Assembly (NCBI GenBank): GCA_937912225.1
Contig: CALDOJ010000036.1
Location: 31,191 to 95,190, forward strand
Length of the DNA: 64,000 nt
Source: Candidatus Woesearchaeota archaeon
GTDB taxonomy: Archaea; Nanobdellota; Nanobdellia; Woesearchaeales; GCA-2686295
Direction: 5' to 3'
Below the pieces are notes generated by a model. That model had not been told where the DNA came from and made no database searches. It saw nothing but the letters and a program-made list of their open reading frames with translations. Shown here in pieces: positions 3,539 to 48,156 of the stretch (positions within the stretch are counted from its first letter, which is position 1; every line of letters begins with the position of its first letter). The position numbers and the translations under genes are program-made.

Positions 3539-4881
3539 TATTTCAAAAAACTAAACTAATAGGATTAAGTATTATGATTGTTTTATTAATCTGTTCTGTA
3601 GAGGGAGCAACTGAACAAAGCATATTATCCAGTCTTTCTAAAATTGAAGTTTTAAAACAAGAAATGATTGATTCAGGTATAAATGTTCTTTTAATGAATG
3701 ATTTGATTGCAGAAGTTAATATTTATCTTGATGAGAATAGATTCGATGATGCAGAGACGGTTATTCAATCAATTTATCAAATTAAAGATTCTGCTTTTAA
3801 AACTCAAAATGAAATGTCTCGTGTTAATAAACTATACCTCGAATTGTTAGATAAAAATATTAGTTTAGTAACTGTTAGTAATGCTAAACTTGAATCGGAT
3901 CTTGTTTATGCTAAAAGAGAGTTTGAAAATGAAAATTATGCAGAATCATTAACATTATTAACAAAAGTTGAGTCTGTTCTCTTAGAGAATATAGGACTTA
4001 GATTTAATTCATTAAAAGAATTAATTTTGGAGCTAGAATTAAAGGCTGAAGAATTAAATACTCCTTCTTCACGTATTAAAACTTTAAAAGATTTGCTTGA
4101 TGAATCATTAGAGAAAGGTTTAATTGATGAATTGATTATTATTGAAGATGAACTTGATGAAATAAAAAATAGTTTTGAATTTATCAAAGAACTTAGAGCA
4201 GATTTTTTATTATTAGAACAATCCAATCTTTCAACAGAGAGATTATCCGATGGTTTACGTGATGCAGAGATTGACTTAAGTTTTTCTGATTATAAATCTG
4301 CTAATGCCAAGTTTGCTGAACTGAAGCTTTTAAAAGATAAAATTTTGACTGTGAAAAAAAATGTTGAAACTTTAGAAAATCTTTTTTTAGAAGAAGAATA
4401 TGGTGATTTAGAAATTGAAGCTCTTGAATCTAGTTTAAAAAAAGCTAATGAAGAATTATACCTCGGCAATTACGAATTAGCTGAAGAAATAGTTTTGCAG
4501 GTTAAAATTGATTATGAAAATTTGAAAGCAGATTCATTGGTTAAAACAGTTGGTGCAAGAAAAGAGCAACTTAGCTTTCAAGAGTTTATTAAAAAAAATC
4601 TTGGTTTAATAGTAATCATTCTAATTGTTGGTATTTTGGCAATGATTTTAACAAAGAAAACTTGGATGTTTGCTTTAAGGAAAAAATTACTTAGAAATCA
4701 CAATAAAGAACTTGACGTTAATAGGAAAATGGTTGATGACCTTCAAAGAAAATATTACATTAAAAGAACTATTTCTAGAGAAACTTATGATGAAAGTTTT
4801 GAATTGCTTAGTGGAAACATAATGGAATTAGATGATAAGATTTCTTTATTAAACAAAAAGATTAAAAAGGACAAGAAATAA
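3535..4881 (+). CDS. Secreted coiled-coil protein with C-terminal TM anchor and short cytoplasmic LQRKYY-motif tail
   Basis: ATGA overlap with the upstream gene. N-terminal signal-like LIGLSIMIVLLICSVEGA, then a long heptad-rich Leu/Glu/Lys region. TM LGLIVIILIVGILAMILT. Tail DDLQRKYYIKRTISRETYDE matches the tails of the upstream protein. Confidence 0.55.
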   Translation: MIFQKTKLIGLSIMIVLLICSVEGATEQSILSSLSKIEVLKQEMIDSGINVLLMNDLIAEVNIYLDENRFDDAETVIQSIYQIKDSAFKTQNEMSRVNKLYLELLDKNISLVTVSNAKLESDLVYAKREFENENYAESLTLLTKVESVLLENIGLRFNSLKELILELELKAEELNTPSSRIKTLKDLLDESLEKGLIDELIIIEDELDEIKNSFEFIKELRADFLLLEQSNLSTERLSDGLRDAEIDLSFSDYKSANAKFAELKLLKDKILTVKKNVETLENLFLEEEYGDLEIEALESSLKKANEELYLGNYELAEEIVLQVKIDYENLKADSLVKTVGARKEQLSFQEFIKKNLGLIVIILIVGILAMILTKKTWMFALRKKLLRNHNKELDVNRKMVDDLQRKYYIKRTISRETYDESFELLSGNIMELDDKISLLNKKIKKDKK

Positions 4882-4892
4882 GAAGTATAATC

Positions 4893-5420
4893 ATGGATTT
4901 ATATGAAGAAATAAAAAACAAACAAATCGTATTAGTTGTTCTTCCAAAAGCACAGTATATAAATAAGTTAATGGAAGTTGTTAAAGCAATTGATTCTGTT
5001 TCAAAAAAGATTTGTTATGTTGCTTTAAATAAGCCTTATAATAGCATTATGAGCATGCTTCAATCACATGAAATTCTTGTTGAGAAGTATTTTTTTATAG
5101 ATGTTCTTACTAGCTCTGTTAAGATTCCTGAACCTATCGAGTATTGCGAGTTTGTTCAATCTCCAAGTGCTTTAACTGATATAAGCTTGGGTTTTTCTAA
5201 AGCCATGCAAGAGAAAGGTTGTGATAATGCTATTTTTGATACTATTTCAACATTAATGATTTATCAAGACATTGGAGAAATTATTAAATTTACACAAAAC
5301 ATGATGACTAAGGCTCGAGTTAGCAATATGAAATCAGTTTATGTTACTCTAAAAGAAGACAGTGAAGAGTTAATTAAAGATTTGATGATGTTTGTTGATG
5401 GCGTTATTGAGTTAGAATAA
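4893..5420 (+). CDS. KaiC/RecA-fold-like small protein without a recognisable P-loop
   Basis: Layout resembles KaiC/RAD55-type signalling ATPase domains (IVLVVLP... CYVALNKPY ... FIDVLT ... AIFDTISTLM ... SVYVTL). No GxxxxGK[ST] is present. The family call is by eye only. Confidence 0.3.
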   Translation: MDLYEEIKNKQIVLVVLPKAQYINKLMEVVKAIDSVSKKICYVALNKPYNSIMSMLQSHEILVEKYFFIDVLTSSVKIPEPIEYCEFVQSPSALTDISLGFSKAMQEKGCDNAIFDTISTLMIYQDIGEIIKFTQNMMTKARVSNMKSVYVTLKEDSEELIKDLMMFVDGVIELE

Positions 5421-5462
5421 AAAATGAAAAAATTAATAAATGAATAAACAAAGGTGATACTT

Positions 5463-5831
5463 ATGGCTAAGAAAATTTTACTTGTGGATGACGAACCACA
5501 CATTATTGAACTTGAAAAAGCAATTCTTACACTTGAAGGTTTTGAAATTTTAACTGCTGAAGATGGAGCAACTGCTCTTGAAATATTAAAAACAGAAAAG
5601 CCTGACTTAGTTATTCTTGACATGATGATGCCTGGAATGAGTGGCAGGGAGACTTGTGACTCTATTCGAAAGAATCCTAAGACTAAAGATTTGAAGGTTA
5701 TCTTTGTGACTGTTGCTAAGTTTTCTGAGATGGGTCAAAAAAGTCTTGAAGAACTTGGAGTTTCAGATTATTTGACTAAACCATTTGATAATGATGAGTT
5801 AGTTGCAAGAGTTAAGAAAGCTTTAAAATAA
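5463..5831 (+). CDS. Stand-alone response regulator receiver (CheY-like)
   Basis: KILLVDDEP, phospho-acceptor context LVILDMMMPGMSG, FVTVAK, YLTKPF. The ATG at 5463 follows AAGGTGAT, so the GTG at 5454 called by the ORF track lies inside the SD. Confidence 0.9.
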   Translation: MAKKILLVDDEPHIIELEKAILTLEGFEILTAEDGATALEILKTEKPDLVILDMMMPGMSGRETCDSIRKNPKTKDLKVIFVTVAKFSEMGQKSLEELGVSDYLTKPFDNDELVARVKKALK

Positions 5832-5839
5832 ATCTAAAA

Positions 5840-8800
5840 TTAATTATTTTCTTTAAATCTATTAAATACTGTTAGTTCGTGTTCTCCTTCTGCTCTCTTT
5901 GTTGTTGGAAGTGTAAAATAAAATGTTGAACCTTTGTTTAGCTTACTTTCAACCCACATACTTCCGCCTAATACTTCAATTATTCCTTTTGAAATTGCAA
6001 GTCCTAAACCAGTTCCACCAACTTTTCTAGTATATGAAGAATCTGCTTGGTAGAATCGTTCAAAGATTTTCTTTAAGTTTTTCTTTTCAATTCCTGTTCC
6101 TTCATCTTTAACTGCAAATAATAATTCTTTATCTTGTTTTTTAACTGAGATAATTATTTTAGTGTTAGGTTTGTCAGAATATTTGACAGCATTGTTTACC
6201 AAATTTACAATTACTTGTGATAACCTGCTTTTATCAACAATTGCATCTTGGATTTTAGAATCAACATTCATTTCTAATTCGACCTGTTTTTTAGCGGCCA
6301 TCACATACAATTCATTAACAACATCTTTTACTAATTCTGATAAATTAATTTTTTCAAAAAAGAATTTCATTGTTCCAAGGTCCAGTCTTGATAAATCTAA
6401 AATATCATCAATTAATTGTTTTAATCTATCTGCATCTTTCATTACAATGCTTAAATAATAATCTCGTTGTGTTTTATTTTCTAAAATCTTCTTATTTTGT
6501 AAAAGTGTTGCAAACCCGTGAATTGATGCTAATGGAGTTTTTAATTCGTGAGCGGTAACTGAAATAAACTCGCTTTTGTATTTGTCCATTTTCTTCATTT
6601 CTTTATTTGCAGCATTTAGTTCTTTATTGATTCCAACTAATCTTTTTTCAGATATCTCAAGTTCTTCTTTTGAAAGACTAACATCTTCAAGAATGTTAAG
6701 AACTGCAGTTCTTGTTTTTTCAAGTTCTTCGACTTTGTTATTTAACTCTACAGTTTTATTTTCAACTAAAGTTTCTAGTTCTTCTTCATGTAACTGTAAT
6801 TCTTTCCGAGATTCTTCTAATTCTTTAGTTCTTTCTTTAACAGTTATTTCTAAGTTAGTAGTTATTTTTTGAAGTTCGTTTGTTTTTTCATCAACTTCTT
6901 TTCTAAGAGTGTTTGTTAATAAAAAATTAAAAACTATTCCTATTATTAAAATTGCAAACATAATTCCTGCAGTAGAAGTCCAAATACTATTTATAGTCTG
7001 TTCAACAAAAGAAACTACTTCTGCTTCATCCATTTTAGTTACAATTCCAACATCTAATTCGGGTATATAATTGGTTACAGCAATAACAGGTGTGTTTCGA
7101 TAATCATTAAAATCTAAAAACACATCTTGATTATTTAACAAAGCTTGTGTTATTGGAATTTCAGTATTTTCTTTTGGAATGATATCTTGAGCTTCTGCTT
7201 CTGTTTCAAACCTTCTTTTGGAAAAAAATTCTGCATCTCCATTTCTATTCCTAAATGCCACTAAACTTTCTCCAGTTTCTCCCATACCAATTTCGTTATT
7301 AAATTTTTCAACTAAGACTTCTGTGTTTAAATTTGCAACTAACACTCCTTCATTATAAGGTATTGAAATAGAAAAAAATATTTTTTCTTCAGTCTCAGAA
7401 TAATAAACTGATTTAAAATAAGTTTCAATTTTTCCAAATAGGAATGCCTCCTCAGTTGATTTATCTAAACCAATATTTTGTTCGTTTGAAGAAGCAATTA
7501 CTATTCCGTCAGAATTTAAAATAAATAACTCGTTAAATTCATTGATGTTATTAACAAGCTTTTTTTGTTCTTCGATTGAAAGTTCTTCATCAATTGCAAA
7601 AATTTTAAGTCTATATTCTTGCTCTTTAAGATATTCCTGAATAAACTTTGATTGTAAGTTAGCAATTGTAGATAATTGACTTGCTATTGTTAATGATCGT
7701 TCTTCTTTCATAGACTGAGTAACATTATATGTGTTAAAAAGAAATAATCCTAATATTAATAACAATGAAATACTAAGTAAAATTACAACAGTGTTTTTCT
7801 CAAAATGAATTAGTTTTAATTTATATAAAAAAAATACTATTATTAGAATTATGATACCTACACCTATAAACACAAACATTAACTTAGTTAAGGATAATTC
7901 TTCTGATTTAACTTCTTCCTTGAATTGAGATATGTCCTGAATAACAACAACTGTTCCAACTTTATTTCCTCCAGCATCATAAAGTGCAAAACCACCATCT
8001 ACAAACGTCTTTTCGCCTAATGAAAATTCATGAAACATGCTCCCTTCATCAGATGATAATTTAAAGTGATTCTCATTAAATGAAGCTTCATTAAAAAGCA
8101 AGTTTGTTTTATCTGTAGAATCAATCAAAAGAAAGTCGTCCATATCATAATAATTATTTCTCAGCCCTTTAAGTTCTCTTATAAAAGCCCATTCATGTTC
8201 ATCAATGAAATCTTTTTTAACAACTATTCCATAATCAAAACCTGTTTGTTGTTTCATAGCGTTAATGAACTTATCAATTTCTTGACCGAATTCAACATAA
8301 CCAATTAATTCACCATTATAATAATAAGGATGAACTACTCTTAATGCAAAGGCAGTCTTTCCAAGTTCTATTCCAGCACCCCAAGAATTTGATAATTTAG
8401 ATTGTTCAAATGTGATTCTTGTTATTTCATCACCAAAAATATCTTTATTATGAACTCGTAAAAGATTAGTTCCGTTTAAATTATAAAAATAAAAATGTGT
8501 TATATCATATACTTCCTTGTTTTTATTAAACATTTCAACAACTGAATTATACAATTTATCTCTATCTCCTTCTAAAAAGATTTTTTTATATTCTTCTTGT
8601 TCCATAAAATTAGTCATTAAATTTTTCAAAGTAGTTACATCTTTTTCATTTAAAACATCAAAAACTATTTTTGCGTCTTGAATATTTTTTAAAACTAATT
8701 TTTCAAGAGAGATTTCAGATAATAATTCTTCCTTAGAAGTAAGTGTGATTCCTGATTCATATTCATCCAAGTAAGTAGTTGCTGCAACATGTAATCCAAC

Positions 8801-45011: not shown

Positions 45012-45416
45012 TTATTGTTGTTTAAGCTTTGGTAATGGGATTGGTGCTGGTAGGCCCAGATCTTTACTTAAGATTAAAGCTTGAATATTGCATTTGTTAA
45101 GAACATTGTTCATAACTTGGTTTGTTGCTTCTTTAGGAATAGATTTGTTCTTTTTCCAAGAATCAAGAACTTCTTTAGCTGTTTTTTCATCAGATAACAA
45201 TACTAATTCGCCATTTAATTCTATATTTCCAATTCCAGGTTCATATTTTGAAGTGTATTGAAAAGTAAACTTCATTGCTTTTTGGTCACCACCAATTGCT
45301 AATTTTGCTTCTTTAACATCTTTAATAGTAACATTATTACTAATGCTAACTTTACCTGTAACAGGAAGTTTTTTTTCAATCATCATTTTTGTGAAATTTA
45401 ATCCAACTATTGCCAT
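45012..45416 (-). CDS. Hypothetical protein, possibly SecB-like fold
   Basis: The order of beta-rich N-half and C-terminal helix (VMNNVLNKCNIQALILSKDLGLPAPIPLP) loosely parallels SecB. Weak by-eye call. Confidence 0.25.
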   Translation of the reverse strand: MAIVGLNFTKMMIEKKLPVTGKVSISNNVTIKDVKEAKLAIGGDQKAMKFTFQYTSKYEPGIGNIELNGELVLLSDEKTAKEVLDSWKKNKSIPKEATNQVMNNVLNKCNIQALILSKDLGLPAPIPLPKLKQQ

Positions 45417-45502: not shown

Positions 45503-45787
45503 GAAATATTTATATATAAAACCCGCTATCCTGAAGGTTATGATTACAAAAAGTGATTATGCGTGGCAATAGTAAACCTTTTTTCTTAGATAGTAATATA
45601 ATATTAACTGGTGATTATGCGTGGCATTTACAAATTCATAACTTATTTTAAAACTTCTAATGGCTTCTGGCGTTTGTTCTTCTAATTAAAAATTCTTAGA
45701 TTAAAAAATAAAATGAAATTTCGGAGGCAAACAAAAAATTGTAAGATTTTTGAGTCTCCTAAAATAAAATTTTCGGAGGAATATAAA
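45503..45787 (+). promoter_or_regulatory. trpB promoter plus ~250-nt leader with overlapping Trp-codon mini-ORFs
   Basis: GAAATATTTATATA (45503-45516) is identical to the trpS promoter core, and 23 nt later comes ATG 45540. The perfect 16-nt repeat GTGATTATGCGTGGCA lies at 45553-45568 and 45611-45626. Mini-ORFs are 45540-45572, 45559-45651 and 45617-45685. Confidence 0.4.
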
Positions 45788-46972
45788 ATGAATATAAAAA
45801 ATAATATACCAAATAAAAAAGGATTTTTCGGAGAGTACGGAGGTCAATTTGTACCAGAAGGATTAAAGATTGCAATGAATAATCTTACAAAAGATTATTT
45901 AAAAATAAAAAAAGACAAAACTTTCAAAAAAGAATTTGTTGAATTAATGAATAACTATGTGGGCAGACCATCAGCACTTTATTTTGCTAGAAATCTAAGC
46001 AAAAAATATGGTTGTAAGATCTACTTTAAAAGAGAAGATTTAAACCACACAGGAGCTCATAAAATTAACAACACTATAGGACAAGCTTTGCTTGCAAAAA
46101 GAATTGGCATAAAAAAAATTATTGCTGAAACTGGAGCAGGTCAACATGGAGTTGCAACAGCAACTGCAGCTGCATTGATGGGCTTAGAATGTGAAATTTT
46201 TATGGGAGAAATTGATGCAAAAAAACAGATGATGAATATTTATCGTATGCAATTGCTTGGAGCTAAAGTCAATGTTGTTAAAAAAGGTGGCAGAACCTTA
46301 AAAGATGCAGTTGATGCAGCACTTGAATACTATATGCACCATCCAGAAGTATTTTATCTTCTTGGTTCTGTTGTAGGTCCACACCCTTATCCAATGATGG
46401 TTCGTGATTTTCAATCAATTATTGGAAAAGAAGCAAAGAAACAAATAAAAAAGCAAGAAGGAAGATTACCCGACTACCTTGTTGCTTGTGTTGGTGGCGG
46501 AAGTAATGCAATTGGCTTGTTTTATGACTTTATACCTAACAAACAAGTTAAGTTAATAGGTGTAGAGCCTGCTGGTAAAGGACTAAAAACAGGTAAACAT
46601 GCAGCAACTATGACTCTTGGAAAACCAGGTGTTTTACATGGATTTTATAGTTATCTTTTACAAGATAAAGATGGTAATCCATTGCCTGTTTATTCTATAG
46701 CTTCAGGACTCGATTATCCTGGAGTTGGACCTGAACAAAGCTTTTTGAAAGATATTAAAAGAGCAGAATTTAAACATGTAACTGATGCTGAAGCTTTAGC
46801 AGCGTTTCATGAAACTTCTAGAATTGAAGGAATAATTCCTGCTTTAGAAACAAGCCATGCCCTTGCATATTCTTTCAAACTTGCAAAGAAGCTTAGAAAA
46901 GATCAAATTATTATTGTGAACTTTTCAGGTCGAGGAGACAAAGATGTAGAGTTTGTTGCAAGCCTGCATTAA
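45788..46972 (+). CDS. trpB: Tryptophan synthase beta chain (TrpB1-type), stand-alone
   Basis: [43 protein letters not shown] 45788 follows CGGAGGAAT. The called start at 45713 adds 25 non-conserved residues. Confidence 0.9.
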
Positions 46973-47003: not shown

Positions 47004-47017
47004 GAAATATTTATATA
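47004..47017 (+). promoter_or_regulatory. trpS promoter core (TATA), probably giving a leaderless mRNA
   Basis: GAAATATTTATATA followed by exactly 23 nt and then the trpS ATG at 47041. No SD. Confidence 0.45.
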
Positions 47018-47040: not shown

Positions 47041-48156
47041 ATGGATAAAACAATAATTACTCCTTGGGAAGTTAAAGGTAATGTTGATTATAATAAATTA
47101 ATAAGTGAATTTGGAGTTTCTAAAATTGATGAATCCTTAATGAAACAAATAGAAAAGCATGCAGGTGAAATTCATCATTTTCTTAGAAGAAATATTTTTT
47201 TTGCTCATAGAGATTTAAAGTTCTTTTTTGATGAATACGAGAAAGGTAATGCTTTTATGTACACTGGTTGTGGACCTTCAGGACCAATTCATATGGGACA
47301 TGCAACTGTTTGGATGTTTACTAAATGGCTTCAAGATAAACTAGGACTTGATCTTTGGTTTCAATTCACAGATGATGAAAAATTTCTTTTTAAAGATAAA
47401 TCAATGGATGAAATACAAAAATGGCTTTATGAAAATATGTTAGATGTTATTGCTTTAGGTTTTGATCCAAAAAAAACTCATTTTCTAATTGATACAAAAC
47501 ATGCAGGAATAATGTATCCTGAAGCAATCAAAGTTGCTAAAAAGATTACTTTTTCAACTGTAAAATCTGCATTTGGGTTTACTAACGAAAATAATCTTGG
47601 AACTATATTTTTTACTTCAATGCAAGCAGTTCCAGCATTTTTACCTAATATAATTGCGGGTAAAAAAATGGCTTGTTTAATCCCTCATGCAATAGACCAA
47701 GACCCACATTTTAGAGTTACAAGAGATGTCCTTCCAAAATTAGGACATTACAAACCAGCTTCTATTCAATCAATGTTTCTTCCGGGTTTAGGAGGTATGA
47801 AAGAAGATGGAAAACTTTCTTCTTCTACTGGTGAAGCGATTTATTTAACAGATGATAAAAAAACTGTTCGGAAAAAAATAATGAAATATGCTTTCTCTGG
47901 TGGTCAAGCAACACTTGAAGAACATAGAAAAAAAGGAGGTAACCCTGATATTGATGTTAGTTACCAATGGCTTCGATTCTTCGAAGAAGATGATAATAAA
48001 TTAAAAAAGATTTATGAAGATTATAAATCTGGAAAATTATTATCTGGAGAACTTAAACAAATTCTTGTTGATAAAATAAATGCTTTCTTAAAACAACATC
48101 AGAAGAATCGAGAAAAAGCTAAAGACAAACTCGATCAATTTATCTTTAAACAATAA
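47041..48156 (+). CDS. trpS: Tryptophanyl-tRNA synthetase, archaeal/eukaryal type
   Basis: GCGPSGPIHMGH (HIGH-type), KLSSS (KMSKS-type), overall length 371 aa. Confidence 0.9.
   Translation: MDKTIITPWEVKGNVDYNKLISEFGVSKIDESLMKQIEKHAGEIHHFLRRNIFFAHRDLKFFFDEYEKGNAFMYTGCGPSGPIHMGHATVWMFTKWLQDKLGLDLWFQFTDDEKFLFKDKSMDEIQKWLYENMLDVIALGFDPKKTHFLIDTKHAGIMYPEAIKVAKKITFSTVKSAFGFTNENNLGTIFFTSMQAVPAFLPNIIAGKKMACLIPHAIDQDPHFRVTRDVLPKLGHYKPASIQSMFLPGLGGMKEDGKLSSSTGEAIYLTDDKKTVRKKIMKYAFSGGQATLEEHRKKGGNPDIDVSYQWLRFFEEDDNKLKKIYEDYKSGKLLSGELKQILVDKINAFLKQHQKNREKAKDKLDQFIFKQ

Follow-up and report, generated by a model that had tools for sequence, protein, structure and literature searches.

The 64,000-nt stretch analysed here (the window), part of contig CALDOJ010000036.1 from a small, uncultured Candidatus Woesearchaeota archaeon, carries in front of a stand-alone gene for the tryptophan synthase beta chain, trpB, a leader with three overlapping miniature open reading frames (ORFs). 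Our analyses suggest that this is a conserved cis-regulatory leader of stand-alone trpB genes of the DPANN type, which probably controls trpB by ribosome-mediated translational attenuation that senses charged tRNA-Trp. This reading draws on sequence comparison and on thermodynamic modelling, namely on the conservation of the leader, the frame relations of its upstream ORFs (uORFs), their coding signature, a leaderless promoter geometry and a predicted sequestration of the ribosome-binding site (RBS) in the window and in two related loci, L171 and L175. The first-pass annotation of the window had put forward the core of this idea as a speculation, i.e., stalling in mini-ORFs with single Trp codons that acts on a switch at the trpB Shine-Dalgarno (SD) sequence. 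With conservation over 13 loci, a coding signature and a model of the switch, it is now strongly supported.

In the proposed mechanism, the transcript would begin with the ATG of the first mini-ORF or directly beside it and so be leaderless, and ribosomes would make short peptides from its overlapping frames, each of which has a single invariant Trp codon. With charged tRNA-Trp scarce, the ribosome would pause on UGG. Paused on the last UGG (45668-70), it would cover the segment holding a decoy SD-like sequence, CGGAGGC, and the released decoy would capture the anti-SD sequence UCUCC, leaving the trpB SD free and trpB translated. With Trp plentiful, the ribosome would terminate a few codons on and leave, and the RBS would be re-sequestered. 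An upstream sequence module would couple each reading frame to the next one in +1, and an extra copy of it in the window would give a three-tier relay. Pausing on UGG, the direction of regulation and the entry of ribosomes into the second and third mini-ORFs are the parts of this scheme that we infer. The leader occupies the 371-bp spacer between a divergent gene for a 134-aa protein and trpB, and is composed as follows.

45509-45516, plus strand: leader promoter, TATA box (TTTATATA) whose first base lies 31 nt ahead of the ORF1 ATG
45540-45572, plus strand: ORF1, short leader peptide MITKSDYAWQ followed by a stop codon, with UGG1 at 45564-45566
45553-45568, plus strand: 16-mer copy 1, with SD-like GUGAUU (45553-58), rare codon GCG (45561-63), UGG (45564-66) and C (45567)
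45579-45591, plus strand: U-rich tract and UUCUUAGAU (ORF2 codons F-F-L-D), a motif kept about +25 nt from UGG1 in most relatives
ATG 45559 or GTG 45553, to 45651, plus strand: ORF2, (VI)MRGNSKPFFLDSNIILTGDYAWHLQIHNLF followed by a stop codon, in the +1 frame relative to ORF1, with UGG2 at 45622-45624
45611-45626, plus strand: 16-mer copy 2, a lineage-specific second module copy that sits where relatives have terminal N-G-x-W codons
ATG 45617 or GTG 45611, to 45685, plus strand: ORF3, (VI)MRGIYKFITYFKTSNGFWRLFF followed by a stop codon, in the +1 frame relative to ORF2, with UGG3 at 45668-45670
45663-45675, plus strand: segment 1 (GGCUUCUGGCGUU, containing UGG3), predicted to pair in the free RNA with the decoy at 45721-45728 (minimum free energy structure and ensemble)
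45722-45728, plus strand: segment 2, the decoy SD-like CGGAGGC, predicted to pair with segment 1 in the free RNA and with segment 3 if UGG3 is covered
45752-45759, plus strand: segment 3, anti-SD GAGUCUCC, predicted to pair in the free RNA with the trpB SD (probability about 0.63)
45775-45779, plus strand: segment 4, trpB SD, GGAGG
45788-46972, plus strand: trpB, stand-alone tryptophan synthase beta chain and proposed regulated gene, with a PALP domain; the closest proteins are annotated tryptophan synthase beta

The sequence elements named in the first-pass annotation were all found again: the 16-nt repeat GTGATTATGCGTGGCA, with exact copies at 45553-45568 and 45611-45626, three nested mini-ORFs with the translations as stated and exactly one TGG each (45564, 45622 and 45668), and downstream CGGAGGC (45722-28), TCTCC (45755-59) and the trpB SD (GGAGG, 45775-79). 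The 64 kb contained no third match to the 16-mer, even at three mismatches. By chance about 0.15 matches are expected, and two or more were obtained in 1 of 100 shuffles. Only the 16 nt are shared between the copies, the flanking sequences being unrelated. An assembly error is unlikely, because three further public assemblies of this organism (L167-L169) contain the leader without any difference; L175, a distant relative with a 70% identical TrpB, has the identical 16-mer in one copy. Copy 2 is read by ORF2 as G-D-Y-A-W, and ORF3 ends with the conserved terminal sensor F-K-T-S-N-G-F-W-R-L-F-F-stop. From the position of the TATA box, 31 nt from the ATG, it follows that the transcript should be leaderless, with its start at or near 45540.

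Related leaders came from a genome scan (L001, L002) and from look-ups of the closest TrpB proteins, which gave 11 further distinct loci (within L161-L166 and L170-L176). Eleven of the 12 exact-protein look-ups gave related archaeal leaders, and the twelfth returned the window's own strain copies; these 12 proteins were among more than 100 listed with an identity of at least 65%. In all 13 other DPANN-type archaeal loci fetched, a related leader was found directly upstream of stand-alone trpB. These loci span 23-59% GC and differ in their flanking genes (hydrogenase, FtsZ, topoisomerase VI, enolase and others). None of about 158 bacterial trpB loci that these searches also brought up has the leader, and scans of metagenome and viral contigs with TrpB retrieved bacterial relatives only, or nothing. 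Conservation in relatives, a check suggested in the first-pass annotation, hence holds for the unit as a whole in 13 loci, whereas the 16-nt repeat itself is peculiar to this genome.

All leader units share their promoter geometry: in each of the 16, a TATA-like 8-mer (TTTAWATA) precedes the first uORF ATG, with its start at a distance of 29-33 nt. This geometry recurs, at -30 to -34 nt, at the many protein genes of the window that lack an SD (30926, 33776 on the minus strand, 39210 on the minus strand, 42293 on the minus strand, and 62415), and for this reason the leader mRNA is most likely leaderless. Other genes of the window have GGAGG or GGUGA as SD; the genome thus mixes leaderless and SD-led genes.

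Within the leaders, an ORF1-type uORF of 7-22 codons with the motif G[U/C]GAUU-N5-UGG-C was present in 11 of the 13 relatives, or in 12 of 14 organisms including that of the window. Its peptide follows the pattern M-x(1-3)-[S/G]-D-x-x-W-x(1-9)-stop (L001, L002, L164, L165 and L170-L176). A longer uORF occurs in all 13 relatives and, where the short uORF is present, lies in its +1 frame and begins inside the motif. It ends with [I/Y/F]-[F/S]-[K/R]-[I/V/T]-[S/A]-[N/S]-G-x-W-[R/H/Q]-x(0-3)-stop and often has an internal F-F-L-D block. L161 and L163 are without ORF1, and there it is the long peptide (MEKINLGKTINFKINYNLFRISNGFWQ and MNSNNLFKNSTFFLDNIIFKISKGIWH, each followed by a stop codon) whose ATG stands at the leaderless position. 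L173 (2002-2365) and L174 (2176-2457) have two complete tandem units before one trpB, each unit with its TATA box, and here the second unit type ends with [S/D]-E-I-W-x-stop instead of N-G-x-W. The UUCUUAGAU motif is kept as F-F-L-D; in unit 1 of L174 it is kept as nucleotides in another frame.

The frame relations are strict. In 14 of 14 units, the ATG of the uORF and UGG1 share a reading frame, and every uORF has exactly one Trp codon. Successive sensor UGGs are 3n+1 nt apart in 15 of 15 transitions, most often 58 nt, and this is exactly the distance from UGG1 to the terminal UGG in L001, L165, L170 and L175 and likewise from UGG1 to UGG2 in the window. In the terminal block, compared over 12 units, we counted 229, 277 and 384 differences at the three codon positions and 124 synonymous codon differences, versus 41 and 87 in the other two frames. 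Gly remains GGN with C, T and A freely exchanged, Ser remains UCN, and Trp is invariant. Also between L001 and L176, with 35% and 49% GC, the differences in this block are mostly synonymous. Because the terminal block varies mainly at synonymous third positions, we take the long uORF to be translated. Together with the 3n+1 spacing, the synonymous pattern therefore argues for translated, frame-linked ORFs and not for a DNA site or a folded RNA.

At the beginning of the unit, conservation is of a different kind. Over 15 copies of the motif, the invariant nucleotides are [G/U][U/C]G[A/G]UU-N5-UGG-C at invariant spacing, with GAUU in 14 of 15 copies and GGUU in unit 2 of L174. Ser in the motif is without exception encoded by AGU, which accounts for no more than 4-25% of all Ser codons of the genomes concerned; Asp is encoded by GAU throughout, even where the GC content reaches 59%. 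UGG is preceded in each case by a GC-rich codon that the respective genome seldom uses, for example GCG in the window (5% of Ala), CGU in L165 (0% of Arg) and CGC in L172 (0% of Arg). GUGAUU can pair with the conserved 16S rRNA 3' tail, GAUCACCUCCU, with pairing energies of all copies between -5.6 and -10.7 kcal/mol and -6.2 kcal/mol for copy 1 of the window. The same element is the genuine trpB SD in L164 (GAGUGAUC-AAA-AUG) and L165 (GGUGAU-AAA-AUG). Judged from these comparisons, the 16-mer is a conserved module of SD-like element, fixed short spacer, rare codon, Trp codon and C (the SD-like/UGG-C module).

In the alignment, copy 2 is located exactly at the N-G-x-W position of the relatives, and the window's terminal sensor (KTSNGFW, UGG at 45668-70) follows 46 nt beyond UGG2. 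In this genome, as the alignment indicates, a module copy has overwritten the old terminal sensor and a new sensor lies further on, from which three tiers result, every one shifted by +1 against the tier before it. As origin of the repeat, we favour a short conversion or overwrite and rejected recent tandem duplication, since the stretch between the copies shows no relation to the one following copy 2, and copy 2 stands at the canonical +58. Two other interpretations of the module were dropped as well. GUGAUU does not provide the GA of RUGAUGA and is hence not read as a C/D box, and an SD-like element driving a downstream start (N-UG overlapping UGG) would find C as N in 7 of 15 copies and would leave the in-frame ATG unexplained. 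The third-frame ORF from this N-UG ('ORF-X') usually ends at the UAG of UUCUAGAU, and we treated it as a shadow of the other frames. We also observed that CTAG is about 3.5-fold enriched in the 14 leaders, with 5.3 per kb versus 1.5 per kb in the rest of the loci (for example L001 at 3873 and 3953; L170 at 2432, 2469 and 2481). This enrichment stems in part from the conserved UUCUAGAU (L-D) motif, which is also the source of stops in the other two frames.

How a paused ribosome might act on trpB was modelled with a ribosome footprint of 30 nt that was moved through every leader position by position, the accessibility of the trpB SD being computed each time. In the window, the SD had an unpaired probability of 0.12 in the free RNA, which rose to 0.59 with the footprint on UGG3. 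UGG3 was the best of all footprint positions tested, and none of 40 dinucleotide shuffles matched it. With UGG3 covered, the decoy is predicted to take UCUCC (45755-59) and the SD to become free. The thermodynamic model thus reproduces the sequester/anti-sequester switch at TCTCC that the first-pass annotation had considered, and adds to it the pairing of segment 1 with the decoy. Similar behaviour was predicted for L172 (0.01 to 0.58), L175 (0.00 to 0.31) and L171. In L171, the codons for R-T-S-N-G-F-(W) could form a continuous 17-bp helix with the trpB RBS (-21.9 kcal/mol, p<0.002), and in L175 a predicted 12-bp helix sequestering the RBS lies just past the stop codon (p=0.002). For RBS complementarity of the UGG region, Fisher's combined test over 12 leaders gave p=0.003. 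Direct anti-SD complementarity in the UGG region reached significance only in L171, L175 and L002 and was therefore discarded as a feature common to all leaders.

Several observations weigh against attenuation of this type. RBS sequestration was predicted for no more than about half of the relatives: for L001, L164, L170 and L176, the model gave none by the UGG region, and L002 was mixed, with no unmasking in the footprint model, yet direct RBS complementarity (-15.5 kcal/mol, p=0.04). Either the output is heterogeneous, or our footprint model captures it only partly. RNAalifold on nine leaders gave no conserved pair and no structure common to them, and the folding stability of the window leader does not exceed that of its shuffled versions (z = +0.39). 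Furthermore, classical attenuators have runs of regulatory codons, and here each uORF has a single Trp codon. The terminal peptide is kept at the amino acid level, which simple sensing of a hungry codon would not require and which hints at an effect of the nascent peptide. Finally, three units (with GCG at the motif start position) do not have any canonical start in the open +1 frame, and no SD precedes the +1 ORF start (GUG) in any unit. Entry into ORF2 and ORF3 is hence difficult to account for. Ribosomes might initiate independently at the GUG or UUG of the motif; in the window and in L175, an AUG is available in frame as well. If ORF2 initiated independently, however, a ribosome stalled at UGG1 would block it, and regulation would have the wrong sign.

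Transcription termination was considered as an alternative output. A scan for bacterial-type promoters and terminators found no terminator in the window leader, and we rejected oligo-T termination as a universal output, since no more than about half of the leaders have T5-T10 tracts downstream of their last UGG. L164 and L172 have in common a GUGAGCCCUAGGCUU hairpin with a T8 tract after the leader peptide.

The difficulty of entering ORF2 and ORF3 would disappear if the module were a Trp-starvation sensor that works by programmed +1 ribosomal frameshifting, a possibility that we consider tentatively and, from the sequences at hand, would not expect to hold. Initiation would take place only at the leaderless AUG of ORF1. 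With plentiful Trp-tRNA, UGG would be read and termination would occur within a few codons. With scarce Trp-tRNA, the ribosome at UGG would shift by +1, read GGC, and continue in the next frame until it reached the last UGG, where a pause would unmask the trpB RBS. With two module copies 58 nt (3n+1) apart, the window would be a three-stage relay. Such frameshifting would explain the fixed spacing of the SD-like element and the rare P-site codon, the conserved C (+1 codon GGC), the missing start codons and the strict 3n+1 rule. The zero frame stops 1-9 codons after UGG, and the +1 ORF is conserved and open in the three units without a canonical start. A slow A-site codon, an SD-like stimulator at fixed short spacing and a conserved next base are found in 15 of 15 copies, with 2-3 nt between GUGAUU and the P-site codon. 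In contrast, the P-site codons are mostly non-slippery, with UUU-U only in L170 and L171 and CGC, CGU, CGG, GCG or CAA in the others, and the effective SD spacing is not obviously strained. The shift may be Ty3-like, i.e., without slippage. If frameshifting were true, this would be the first programmed +1 frameshift in Archaea, and the first frameshift anywhere that serves as an amino acid sensor.

The conserved terminal peptide could also act by itself. As a nascent-peptide arrest sensor similar to TnaC or to the fungal arginine attenuator peptide (AAP), F-K-I-S-N-G-x-W-[R/H/Q]-stop would act in the exit tunnel, and a stall at or near the stop codon would answer free tryptophan or indole, the substrate of TrpB, instead of uncharged tRNA. 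The last 9-10 residues are indeed kept as amino acids with synonymous codon changes, Trp is 1-4 codons from the stop in most units, and attenuators that count codons normally conserve regulatory codons only. We nevertheless regard this as unlikely. Pfam and NCBIfam scans of the leader peptides gave no family at E<=10, neither TnaC nor the leader-peptide families are similar, and the W...D...P spacing of TnaC is missing. Moreover, for a biosynthetic gene to be repressed by a stall at high Trp, a further step would have to be assumed, and the ORF1-type module is constrained at the level of nucleotides and not of the peptide.

Constraint on nucleotides would also be expected of a DNA operator, in which G[T/C]GATT-N5-TGGC and TTCTAGAT bind a Trp-responsive transcription factor and the mini-ORFs are incidental. 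TrpY of Methanothermobacter, an archaeal trp regulator, is a DNA-binding protein that represses trp genes at TRP boxes in their promoters. Parts of the motif are kept as nucleotides (GAT is never GAC, Ser is always AGT, and TTCTAGAT stands in another frame in unit 1 of L174), and relative to the predicted start, the motifs are at +11 to +50. An operator is very improbable all the same: it leaves the in-frame ATG (14 of 14), the in-frame TGG, the early stops, the 3n+1 spacing (15 of 15) and the synonymous pattern unexplained, and the motif is neither palindromic nor, the window excepted, repeated. We give as little credence to the view that the mini-ORFs are free-standing small proteins merely linked to trpB, or a chance pattern, although the terminal peptide is kept like a protein and AT-rich intergenic DNA yields many short ORFs. 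The peptides travel with trpB through differing gene neighbourhoods, each has one Trp at a fixed place, and the peptide body is poorly conserved outside of two short blocks; the terminal motif, expected by chance about once per 24 kb per strand, was found in nearly every leader. A structured RNA that senses tRNA-Trp or Trp directly in the manner of a riboswitch or T-box, with UGG as specifier, is the least credible explanation, for although a long 5' region precedes an amino acid gene, UGG is invariant and followed by C, and Firmicute-type trpB loci in the same search have T-box-like leaders, Rfam gave no match at the gathering threshold for the window or at E<=10 for the leader and only tRNAs in the 13 related loci, no conserved pair or unusual folding stability was seen, as described above, and the discriminator A of the tRNA-Trp in L173 would need UGGU for acceptor pairing instead of the observed UGGC, for which reason T-box-like pairing of UGGC with the tRNA 3' end was rejected.

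Some bacterial trpB loci from our searches showed leaders of other types. T-box-like sequences (GGTGGTACCACG) were seen upstream of trpB in the Mollicutes-like L007 and L066. In L009, from Candidatus Kerfeldbacteria of the Candidate Phyla Radiation (CPR), a small ORF with one Trp (3787-3900, MKNLQHNLINWNITLITG followed by a stop codon) stands before stand-alone trpB, and a GC-rich hairpin with a T7 tract (CTGCCTGGTGGCAGGGTATTTTTTT) follows it; this looks like a candidate bacterial-type attenuator.

The window has a GC content of about 29% and contains archaeal marker genes (GatD/GatE, CDC48). Two genes adjoin the leader and trpB.

45012-45416, minus strand: divergent gene for a 134-aa protein, no Pfam match
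47041-48156, plus strand: trpS, archaeal-type tryptophanyl-tRNA synthetase, adjoining trpB

The 134-aa gene is syntenic beside the trpB leader in L001 (54% identity), and a homologue is probably present in L171 as well. TrpB of the window is of the bacterial type; its nearest relatives, at 67-81% identity, are from Woesearchaeota, Nanoarchaeota and unclassified 'DPANN' archaea, and the next-nearest, at about 64%, are from CPR bacteria and Clostridia. An ATG at 45713, in frame with trpB, would open a 419-aa ORF, and the Joint Genome Institute (JGI) gene call (P0121) uses that start. Since homologues and the SD at 45775 point to 45788, we take the latter as the real trpB start. The N-terminal extension from ATG 45713 holds the decoy TTTCGGAGG, a repeat of the true trpB RBS (direct-repeat family D4).

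In the window, trpS has its own TATA box (TTTATATA) at 47010-47017, 31 nt before its ATG, and neither an SD nor a Trp-codon leader in front. It is probably transcribed separately, as a leaderless mRNA, and co-transcription with trpB need not be assumed. In most loci trpS is adjacent to trpB or one gene away. Between the two, a gene of the pyridoxal phosphate (PLP)-binding YggS/Ala_racemase_N family was found in L164 (1690-2373), L172 (3729-4373) and L174 (3679-4320). Genes for tRNA-Trp (CCA) lie in L173 (2385-2460) directly behind a T10 tract, with the second leader unit on one side and trpB on the other, and in L175 (3685-3761) between trpB and trpS. These embedded genes suggest a small 'Trp supra-operon' in some DPANN genomes and, like the nearby trpS, count in favour of the attenuation reading. 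Downstream of trpB in L173, the product of 4440-6164 joins a B3_4 domain (PheRS-beta-like) and a class I W/Y tRNA synthetase domain, possibly a fused or unusual TrpRS.

Leader-peptide attenuation is a textbook mechanism of bacteria, and archaea likewise couple transcription and translation. The first-pass annotation had noted that attenuation-like control is not established in archaea; in line with this, our full-text literature searches found no description of an archaeal Trp leader peptide or attenuator. Archaeal uORFs have been described as not well characterised (PMC7261190), and archaeal recoding has so far been established only for stop-codon readthrough and one -1 frameshift (PMC8037382). 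The trpB leader is a concrete, conserved and sequence-defined candidate for an archaeal ribosome acting as amino acid sensor. It would bring leader-peptide attenuation into a domain where this has not been demonstrated, with an unusual architecture of overlapping frames, and the SD-like/UGG-C module with its strict +1 ORF relation raises the possibility of regulated recoding in Archaea. The genome-reduced DPANN archaea with this leader retain only trpB, probably for indole salvage. The leader hence also bears on how minimal cells regulate a scavenging step without dedicated regulators.

Among known systems, TrpY resembles the control proposed here in that Trp biosynthetic genes of an archaeon would respond to Trp availability. 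TrpY repression, however, involves neither a leader peptide nor a ribosome. With TnaC and the AAP, the leader shares a short uORF, a conserved Trp-containing peptide and critical residues near the stop codon, and with TnaC also the proposed regulation of a gene of Trp metabolism. There is no sequence similarity, since TnaC has W-x3-D-x7-P-stop and here D-x10-W-x-stop or N-G-x-W-x-stop is found. At high Trp, TnaC blocks Rho and thereby switches on a catabolic operon, in contrast to a biosynthetic or salvage gene in a host without Rho.

Like trpL of Enterobacteria and Actinobacteria, the leader encodes a Trp-codon peptide upstream of a Trp biosynthetic gene, and for the window an alternative pairing of four segments is predicted (1:2 and 3:4 versus 2:3) with the Trp codon in segment 1. 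Unlike with trpL, there is no intrinsic terminator hairpin, and the predicted output is access to the RBS instead of transcription termination. Trp codons are single and not in tandem, relatives do not share the structure, and the host is an archaeon.

The module itself is reminiscent of the +1 site of prfB (release factor 2, RF2), AGGGGG-N3-CUU-UGA-C, in its SD-like element, fixed short spacer, P-site codon, slow A-site codon and C. In both, the zero frame stops soon and the conserved ORF goes on in the +1 frame, and both have UUU-U variants. The yeast Ty1 +1 frameshift site reads CUU-AGG-C. In contrast to prfB, it is a sense codon (UGG) that would be decoded slowly here, most P-site codons (CGC, GCG) are not slippery, and the SD-like element is the GUGAU part of an extended SD, with an effective spacing that is less strained.

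The closest experimentally shown case are the leaderless small ORFs (sORFs) with Cys codons in mycobacteria, where stalled ribosomes block an mRNA structure that sequesters the RBS (Canestrari et al., bioRxiv 10.1101/834739). As in these polycysteine sORFs, the mRNA here is predicted to be leaderless, the first ORF is short and, as a putative sensor, has a cognate codon of the downstream pathway, and a stalled ribosome would free the RBS of the next gene, as predicted for the window, L172, L175 and L171. The mycobacterial system is bacterial and uses runs of Cys codons in a single ORF, whereas the archaeal leader has one Trp codon per ORF, a conserved terminal peptide, and two to three overlapping ORFs that follow each other in successive +1 frames by way of the SD-like/UGG-C module.

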